A stretch of DNA of 20,872 nt from the IMG/VR virus record IMGVR_UViG_2526164630_000021; one strand, given 5' to 3'. The DNA is from a virus. Its lineage: Duplodnaviria > Heunggongvirae > Uroviricota > Caudoviricetes. The number at the start of each line of letters is the position of its first letter. Within the stretch, counting starts at the first letter, position 1. The position numbers were made by a program. Shown here in pieces: positions 1,368 through 4,300 of this stretch.

Positions 1368-4300
1368 TCATCGTTTCCGATGGAAGCATAATAAGCTTTT
1401 TCTGCTTCTGCCGGAGGAATATGGCCCAGCCTTTCCAGCAATCGTCGATTGTTATACCAGTCCACCCACGTGAGTGTGGCCAGTTCCACTTCTGCACGGT
1501 TTTTCCAGCTCTTACGGTGTATTACCTCCGCTTTGTAAAGACCATTGATGCTCTCCGCCATCGCGTTGTCATACGAGTCGCCAGTACTCCCTGTTGATGC
1601 CAGTAATCCGGCTTCCTTAAGCCGCTGCGTGTAGGCCAGCGATACATACTGAGAACCTTTATCACTGTGATGGATTGTGCCGGACGGCCGACGGGCCCAC
1701 AACGCCTGCTCCAGTGCATCCAGCACGAATGTTGTTTCCATGGATGATGAGACCTGCCATCCCACGATGTATCCGGCGAACACATCAATGATGAACGCCA
1801 CATAGACGAAGCCCCGCCATGTGCTTACCCAGGTAAAATCAGCCACCCACAACTGGTCTGGACGTTCTGCCACGAACTGACGGTTTACGCGGTCGCATGC
1901 GGCAACGGCTTTCCGGCTGACGGTAGTGCGGACCTTTTTACCCCGGAGAACACCGGCAAGTCCCATAACTGCCATGAGGCGCGCCACTGTACATCTGGCC
2001 ACTCTGTTACCTTCCCGTAACAACTGACGCCAGACTTTACGCACACCGTATACCTTGTGATTTTCATCGTATACGCGCTGTATCTCTTTCTTCAGCCAGT
2101 CATCGCGCTGCGCACGGGCACTGCGTTTATCCGGATAATGTCGCTGTTGCTGACAGTGGTAATACGTTGACGGGGCAATATGCAGTTCGCTGCATACCGG
2201 TCCGACCCCGTACTGCTCACGCAGCTTATCCAGCAGTGGCATTATTTTTTCCAGAGGCGGTCGAACTCCGCCTTCGCAAAATAAGCGGAAGCCTGGCGAA
2301 GGATATCGTTACTGCGGCGCAGTTCACGATTTTCACGTTCCAGCTCTTTCAGACGCTGACGTTCAGCGGTGGTGAGTCCACCATCACCACTCCCGGTATC
2401 CCGCTCATGCTGGCGAACCCAGACACGCAGAGTCTCCGGCGTACAGCCAATCTTTGGGCAATGGAACAAATTGCCGCCCACTGTGAGTCATATTCATCCT
2501 GACTTTCCAGAACCATACGAATCGCCCGCTGACGGACTTCGGGGGAAAAACGAGTATTTTTAGTCATCCTGTTTACCTCTTTCTCAGGGAGTTTAGTCTC
2601 CAGGATTTCCGGGGCGGTTCACACTGATATCCGCATTTTTAGCGGTTAGCTTTCCGTCTGATGTCAGGGAAAATGCCGGAGGATTGCCACCACTGGTAAT
2701 TGTGGGAGCAATAAGGGTCTTAATCAGCGCTTCATTGATAAACGTCTGTCCCCCCTGCGTGACCAGTGCTGGAGTGGTGTTACCGTTCTCCGGATTAATG
2801 AACGCAATCCTGTCTGCCGCCAGCAGCACCTGACTCTGCATGCCGTCAGGGGTGTTCTCAATACCGGCACCAATACCCGCGATATAAAGGCGTCCGTCCT
2901 GCATCTGCTGCAGCTTCACTGCCCACATGCTGTTCAGGTTATTATTTGTATCAACCTGAACCTTCTGTATCTGCTGAATTGCCGCACTCTGGTCTTCCAG
3001 TTTCTTATTGACGGTCTGCGTGATTTCATTGCTGACATCCGTAATGGACGTCCTGATTTCAGCCAGGTCAGGCGCAAGCTGACCGTTATCAATCTGCGTC
3101 CACAACTCCTGAGCCAGATGGGTTTTCCCTATCTCGCCTTTGAAAAAATCCAGATAGCCGGATGCATCATCACTCGGCTGGCCGACGGCCTCCACAAATG
3201 CCGATTTGCCAACGGTGTTCACACTGCGGATGTAAAAATAATAATCATGGCCCGGCTTAATATTGATACTGGCAGCTATCCAGTACAGCGCCGTGCCAAG
3301 ATAGCGGGCTGTGGTTTCAACCTGCCTGATATCCGCAATCCGCTTTTCCGAGAACCAGAATTCAAACTGTACCGTCGGATCATAAACCGCAAGATGCGGC
3401 GTGGCGGTTATCTGAAAATAGCCCGGCGTCAGCTCAATCCGCGACGGTGCTGCCGGTGCGGCAATCCGGAACGATACCGACGCCGGATCGCCCTGCTGTC
3501 CCCACGCATTTACCGCCCGGACCGTCAGCGTGTAATGCCCCAGCGCCAGTTGTGTGAAGCGGTATGTGGTTTCCGCCGTCCGGGCCGTGCTGACCAGCCG
3601 CTCACTGCCGTCATCCGCGGCCACGGTCAGGCGAAGCATGAAACTCACGCCCTTCACCACCTTCGGCGTGTCCCAGCGGGCCAGTACCTGATACTCCCCG
3701 CTGTCTGCGGTGACTTCGGCAGTCAGGTGCTGCACCGCTGGCGGCGTGACACCATTCACCGTGCCGCTCTGGTCGCCGTCAAAGTGCGCCCCGTTATCCA
3801 CGATGGCTTCTTTTTCCGGTACATGCTGCACGGCAGTGATGGCATACGTGCCGTCATCGTTCTCACGGATACTCACACAGCGGAACAGGCGCTGGCGCAA
3901 CGTCGGCAACTTCAGCCCCCATACGCTGTATCCGGCAACGCCGTCAGGAACACGGCTCACTTTTACCTTCACGCCGTCGGTGACGGACTGGACCTCCACG
4001 CTGACCGGATTGCCACTTCCGTCAACCAGGCTTATCAGCGTAGTACCGGAGGATGGCAGCGTGATTTCACGGTCGAGCGTCAGCGTCCGGGTCTGGCTGT
4101 TCACCGCCAGCACGCGCCCGCCGGTGCTGATACCGGCATAGTCATCATCGCAGATTTCAATGACATCGCCCGGTACATGGCGAAGCCCTTCAGCACCCAC
4201 GCTGAAGTCCACGGTCTGCGTTCCAGCAGCTCCGTTTTAATCAGCCACAGCCCGGCGCGGTGTGCCTGCCCCCGGCTGGTACAGCCAAAGGCATCCATCT

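Follow-up and report, generated by a model that had tools for sequence, protein, structure and literature searches.

A lambda-type gene J that is broken in two places raises the question of whether both breaks belong to the prophage itself or whether one of them was made when its genome was assembled. The gene lies in a window of 20,872 nucleotides (by the window we mean the whole stretch of DNA that was analysed), which corresponds over its entire length to contig AIGX01000023.1 (20,872 bp), part of the Escherichia coli DEC11C draft genome of 2012 (GCA_000250155.2). The AIGX record is that of an STEC strain of serotype O45:H2, stx1a-positive and carrying eae-epsilon (PMC4959244). The window holds the late operon of a lambda-type prophage on its minus strand, in the order end of gpA, W, B, C, D, E, FI, FII, Z, U, V, G/T, H, M, L, an ant/arc module, K, I, J, lom and the start of stf. 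One lesion in J is an IS629 insertion and the other is the loss of a single base; we find that the missing base is probably an error of the DEC11C draft consensus, in which a homopolymer was under-called, rather than a mutation of the strain, a reading to which we assign a probability of about 0.7.

The lesion is at positions 4221..4222, where the run reads TT on the plus strand (AA on the minus strand, from which J is read) and TTT/AAA in all relatives, giving a frameshift at codon 459 of 1160. From 4223 to 4215 the minus strand reads GGAACGCAG, where relatives read GGAAACGCAG; the wider stretch from 4230 to 4211 is GCTGCTGGAA CGCAGACCGT (unspaced: GCTGCTGGAACGCAGACCGT). The intact form, GGAAACGCAG, is present in the closest complete-genome relative (L004; NZ_AP038976.1, from the O103:H2 strain 129) and in the sister contigs L007, L009, L011 and L019. 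Upstream of the gap, the J frame is that of ORF 4101..5639, with its start ATG at 5594; past the gap it runs through 39 out-of-frame residues to a stop at 4101, so that the N-terminal fragment as encoded (4101..5594, minus strand; EHX13601.1) is a protein of 497 aa made up of 458 J residues and those 39, with the Pfam domains FNIII-A_GpJ and Phage-tail_3. J homology resumes in the shifted frame of ORF 2593..4212 on the same strand, whose called product (2593..4113; 506 aa; EHX13600.1) carries Ig_J, Ig_J_second and Phage_Tail_Tip; this ORF then leaves J, enters the end of IS629 and stops inside it. The C-terminal receptor-binding part, severed by the IS, is a 167-aa ORF at 801..1304 (minus strand) with the domain Ig_GpJ_C. 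Thus, instead of the single uninterrupted ORF of ~1130-1165 aa that marks a functional gpJ, the window has a J that splits at codon 459 (the gap) and again near codon 991 (IS629).

J was then repaired in silico by inserting one A at the gap and excising the IS together with one copy of its target duplication. The result is a single ORF of 3483 nt encoding 1160 aa, the same length as the annotated gpJ in L004, and its protein product matches lambda gpJ (the tip attachment and host specificity protein; 8IYK chain J) with 2144 bits, residues 1-835 aligning collinearly to residues 1-835. The earlier note on this DNA had reported that J homology switches frame between the two ORFs and had named the lost base and the intact reading; all of this, coordinates included, holds, and the Pfam domains fall on both sides of the switch. 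Because both halves carry gpJ domains in the correct order and the repaired protein matches lambda gpJ, the frame change is no chance product of ORF calling. EHX13601.1 and EHX13600.1 are probably two halves of one J fragment.

Likeness to lambda extends beyond the alignment. The domain order FNIII-A_GpJ, Phage-tail_3, Ig_J, Ig_J_second, Phage_Tail_Tip, Ig_GpJ_C is the same, although spread here over three fragments, and J occupies the same place in the run H-M-L-K-I-J-lom-stf. The two differ in that the J of the window is in three pieces, owing to the 1-nt gap and IS629, in that its C-terminal receptor-binding part matches 'A8 gpJ' (9WCA) better than that of lambda, and in that the window has an ant/arc module between L and K. 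This module, at 7016-8610 within the tail cluster, consists of the gene for a P22-type antirepressor, Ant, called at 307 aa, with two small genes of the Arc family, and it occurs in all sister contigs as well as in the O103:H2 strain 129.

The second break in J is an IS3-family element of the IS629/IS1203 type at 1313..2621 (minus strand; 1309 nt), inserted after approximately codon 991. It has the features by which such elements are recognised, namely a length of ~1310 bp (the copies in L004 and L017 are 1310 nt), terminal inverted repeats (TGAACCGCCCCGG...), an orfA-orfB arrangement and a 3-bp target duplication, here GTG at 1310-1312 and 2622-2624. The same organisation is seen where IS629/IS1203 elements have entered prophage genes in other EHEC and STEC strains, and the copy in the window is 99.3 % identical to annotated IS3-family copies of O45:H2 and O103:H2 strains. 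Since the 3-bp duplication is a footprint of transposition, the insertion is genuine, and the claim that J bears a lesion besides the IS is borne out by the sequence as written. J is thus dead whether or not the base is truly missing, and with this gene inactivated by IS629 the prophage cannot make infectious tails. The biological weight of the missing base is accordingly small, IS629 already disabling the gene regardless of it.

The J::IS629 junction was found in no complete E. coli genome searched, a difference from other EHEC/STEC insertions of the element, and the protein collection has no exact entry for either repaired product, the J-IS fusion or the full-length J. Among the sister contigs, L019 reads through the insertion site without an IS, and L007 ends 3 nt short of the junction; the position of that contig end is suggestive and proves nothing. 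Around the target site (1305-1315 and 2622-2630), J carries the near-repeat CAGTGGCAGTG, which in L019 is CAGTG-TGAATG, six bases shorter, at the end of its contig.

The exact 167-aa C-terminal ORF, together with lom and stf, recurs in 76 blocks of the collection. In the contigs L024-L033 this ORF (at ~3900-4010) stands behind unrelated upstream DNA, including a truncated gpA, a methyltransferase gene, a LysR gene and an integrase region. The junctions fall no more than ~10 nt from the IS629 site, and two or more of them show short homology (TGCGG; ACCGCTA..AAATGCG). A recombination hot spot at the IS site was considered for this pattern, which recurs in many prophage remnants, and set aside; it is probably in the main an ascertainment effect of looking up exact products, combined with short-homology deletions.

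To place the missing base in its context, the window was compared with its closest relatives, as the earlier note had proposed. Sister prophages were found by their exact H and I proteins, yielding 14 contigs from other assemblies that are 99.6-99.98 % identical to the window. Four of these (L007, L009, L011 and L019; 99.87-99.98 % identical) reach the lesion site, and all four are intact there. The nearest, L019, differs from the window by one substitution and the J gap in 9,611 nt and has neither of the two J lesions. When private differences were scored by projecting all sisters onto the window, the interval from 2618 to ~18200 (~15.6 kb) contained no private substitution and exactly one private indel, which is the J lesion itself.

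These comparisons bear directly on the suggestion that J decayed after loss of selection, which we find unsupported. A decaying gene would be expected to pass its lesion to related lineages and to gather an excess of substitutions; the gap is absent from the four sisters and from all matching places in complete genomes, and private substitutions number zero across the interval. With none in ~15.6 kb, there is no sign of elapsed neutral time. It was correctly observed that the other head and tail genes are intact, the ORFs of W, B, C, D, E, FI, FII, Z, U, V, G, T, H, M, L, K and I having the same lengths as in the sister contigs. This, too, weakens the decay reading, because a loss of selection following the IS insertion would free all late genes and not J alone.

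The base could instead have been lost very recently, by replication slippage (AAA->AA) in the DEC11C lineage, truncating gpJ after residue 458 as a neutral change in a defective prophage whose J was already, or was about to be, inactivated by IS629. Several observations agree with such an event: the IS, with its 3-bp target duplication, truly disrupts J and removes selection on it, so that the gene would tolerate a true frameshift as a neutral change; the affected run is a homopolymer, where slippage usually occurs; and STEC prophages are often defective. Against it stand the single substitution separating the window from L019, which lacks both lesions over 9.6 kb, and the absence of private substitutions from ~15.6 kb. 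Mutation-accumulation lines of E. coli, in work by Lee and colleagues from 2012, reportedly gain roughly one indel per ten substitutions, and at that rate a private indel unaccompanied by any private substitution is unlikely to be real. We therefore regard genuine slippage as possible but unlikely; should the base truly be gone from the strain, a gene already dead would simply have taken an ordinary second hit.

The rarity of the deletion was examined across several collections. Of 5,426 complete E. coli genomes, 4,229 gave a total of 7,938 places homologous to an 86-mer spanning the site (4180-4265). None of these places matched it at 100 %, and the best of them were the same sequence with one base more. 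Likewise, among the best matches listed from the phage collection, all span one base more than the query. A 22-mer carrying the lesion was found in none of the genome contigs of GTDB species representatives and in no metagenome contig, and it had three matches in viral contigs; the intact 23-mer had at least 120 matches in metagenome contigs and at least 120 in viral contigs. The three viral contigs were ruled out as relatives, being 93 % identical with 17-67 one-base deletions per ~3 kb, and are error-ridden assemblies that lost the same base by accident. The cut-off products of 497 aa and 506 aa are, by exact protein look-up, on record solely for AIGX01000023.1. That the lesion occurs in no other assembly, apart from those error-ridden viral contigs, also counts against slippage as its origin.

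The J gap is one of three private one-base deletions in the contig. The second lies in orfA of IS629, at 2455..2457 (minus strand), where the minus strand reads CCC (GGG on plus) and other IS629 copies read CCCC, breaking orfA after CSIA. It is shared by one of 17,058 IS629-like places in complete E. coli genomes, and the IS at that place is of a different subtype, 97.6 % identical. The 79-aa product of the broken orfA is also found on eight other contigs, most of them records of several megabases or of complete replicons, where further IS629 ORFs are split too. An intact orfA, which autonomous transposition requires, is thus not encoded by the copy in the window, a further difference from other EHEC/STEC copies of the element, and this break may itself be an assembly error. 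The third deletion affects the terminase large subunit gene gpA at 20861..20862 (minus strand), 11 nt from the contig end, where TT on the minus strand replaces the TTT of relatives and puts the gpA segment running past the contig end out of frame; it was found at none of 2,555 homologous places in complete genomes.

All three deletions fall in runs that are 3-4 nt long when intact. Only 15.4 % of the bases in the window lie in runs of at least 3, and the chance that three of three deletions would fall there is ~0.004. That a 21-kb stretch should truly have acquired three private one-base deletions is very unlikely. The deletions show instead what is expected of homopolymer errors: a run changes in length by one base in a single assembly, and that assembly holds further errors of the same kind (2455-2457 and 20861/2). 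It is this combination, of three such deletions in the contig with not one private substitution between 2618 and ~18200, for which we favour a consensus error over decay. A homopolymer sequencing error, which the earlier note had raised as the alternative to decay, is accordingly the better supported of the two, the deletion being private to one 2012 draft contig that holds two further private deletions of the same kind.

False frameshifts of this kind are known from draft and long-read assemblies, where, as here, one-base homopolymer deletions are private to one assembly and similar ones occur in the same contig. Among the contigs compared, J is in 5 pieces in L026 and L030, and IS629 ORFs are split in L035-L041. 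The window differs from such cases in its low density of deletions (3 in 20.9 kb) and in the shortness of the runs concerned (3-4 nt). For a consensus error in 454 data, 3-4 bases is a short run, and real slippage mutations likewise prefer homopolymers, two points that speak against an artefact. Moreover, the window contains 98 runs of at least 5 bases, none of which differs in length from the sisters where these cover it; that the longer homopolymers are all correct indicates an assembly that is not grossly error-prone, as slippage would have it.

A route to a consensus error can nevertheless be proposed. A contemporaneous STEC project of the same institute used 3-kb paired-end 454 Titanium reads assembled with Celera 6.0 (PMC3491183). 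DEC11C was presumably sequenced by the same chemistry, 454 Titanium 3-kb paired ends with Celera, which would supply the route to such errors. The contig spans the whole of a 1.3-kb multi-copy IS, and mate pairs of kilobase span were therefore required, which is consistent with a 454 paired-end pipeline. The pattern of deletions is one that is expected from an indel-prone chemistry, above all at contig ends and where prophage or IS sequence is present in several copies. On this account, the frameshift at codon 459 would have been created during the merging of reads into a consensus, within sequence of which STEC genomes hold multiple copies, J paralogues and IS629 copies being abundant there; the J of this prophage would then carry one real lesion only, the IS629 near codon 991.

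The IS copy itself offers a view of how the consensus may have been built. The closest full-length copies occupy 26-30 places per chromosome in related O45:H2 and O103:H2 genomes, and no single real copy is more than 99.3 % identical to that of the window overall. The copy is a mosaic, another respect in which it differs from other EHEC/STEC copies: at 1793-2023 (IS positions ~600-830) it has eight substitutions relative to the chromosomal copies of O45:H2/O103:H2 genomes, at IS positions 616-653, 808 and 818, and this patch is 99.6 % identical to plasmid-borne copies in the same O45:H2/O103:H2 strains, with flanks of the chromosomal type. By its composition, the mosaic would be either a true recombinant or a collapsed-repeat consensus; it resembles the latter, and a true recombinant could account for it too.

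A blend of IS subtypes would also be in keeping with a collapse of paralogues in J, in which reads from a further lambdoid prophage J of the genome contributed to the consensus; the deletion would then be real in that other copy or would arise from misaligned divergent reads. Genomes that carry the J stretch have a median of 3 matching places and a maximum of 15, which fits such a collapse. The portal gene B provides a possible parallel, since 18 clustered private substitutions relative to the 2-3 sister contigs covering the stretch are found at 18222-19952, as a switch between paralogues would give. Around the lesion, however, the window is the same as its sisters bar the gap, and no paralogue-type substitutions lie nearby; in addition, the deletion is found in no J copy of the 4,229 complete genomes. 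A contribution of paralogous J reads to this deletion is thus very improbable. The portal patch as such, next to 15 kb downstream in which no private substitution occurs, is either a recombination from another prophage or an assembly switch between paralogues.

The change of frame might in principle serve a function, as programmed recoding or as phase variation of J. Nothing beyond the frame change itself points in this direction. There is no slippery heptamer at CUG GAA CGC AGA, the 2-3-base run is too short for phase variation, the feature is conserved in no relative (all are single-frame), and the downstream frame ends in the IS, such that no functional J is possible. On these grounds, programmed ribosomal frameshifting and phase variation were effectively excluded, and we consider a functional frame change a negligible prospect.

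It is also conceivable that the deletion is real and that, with IS629, it represents repeated independent hits to J in one lineage, reflecting selection for loss of the tail tip rather than neutral decay. Were this so, selection might, for example, have favoured a prophage that no longer sheds infectious particles yet is otherwise retained; we judge it very improbable. Under the favoured reading of a consensus error, nothing at the locus is new: the J is lambda-type, the insertion is one of IS629, and the frameshift is most likely an artefact of draft assembly. Its value lies in annotation hygiene, namely that a single-base frameshift in an old draft assembly is no ground for calling a prophage 'decayed', and in a usable recipe by which near-identical sister contigs are compared and private indels are counted against private substitutions.

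Length polymorphism of another kind is seen in the tail gene L, where a six-base in-frame indel (CAGGAG, at 8936-8941) varies across the sister prophages, L having either 231 aa, as in the window, or 229 aa. The closest complete genome, L004 (NZ_AP038976.1), has one-base homopolymer deletions of its own, in the tape measure gene at ~9804 (CCCC->CCC) and in gpA at ~20259 (CCC->CC). Both are annotated as frameshifts in RefSeq and are likely to be further assembly frameshifts in prophage genes, and the window is intact at both sites.
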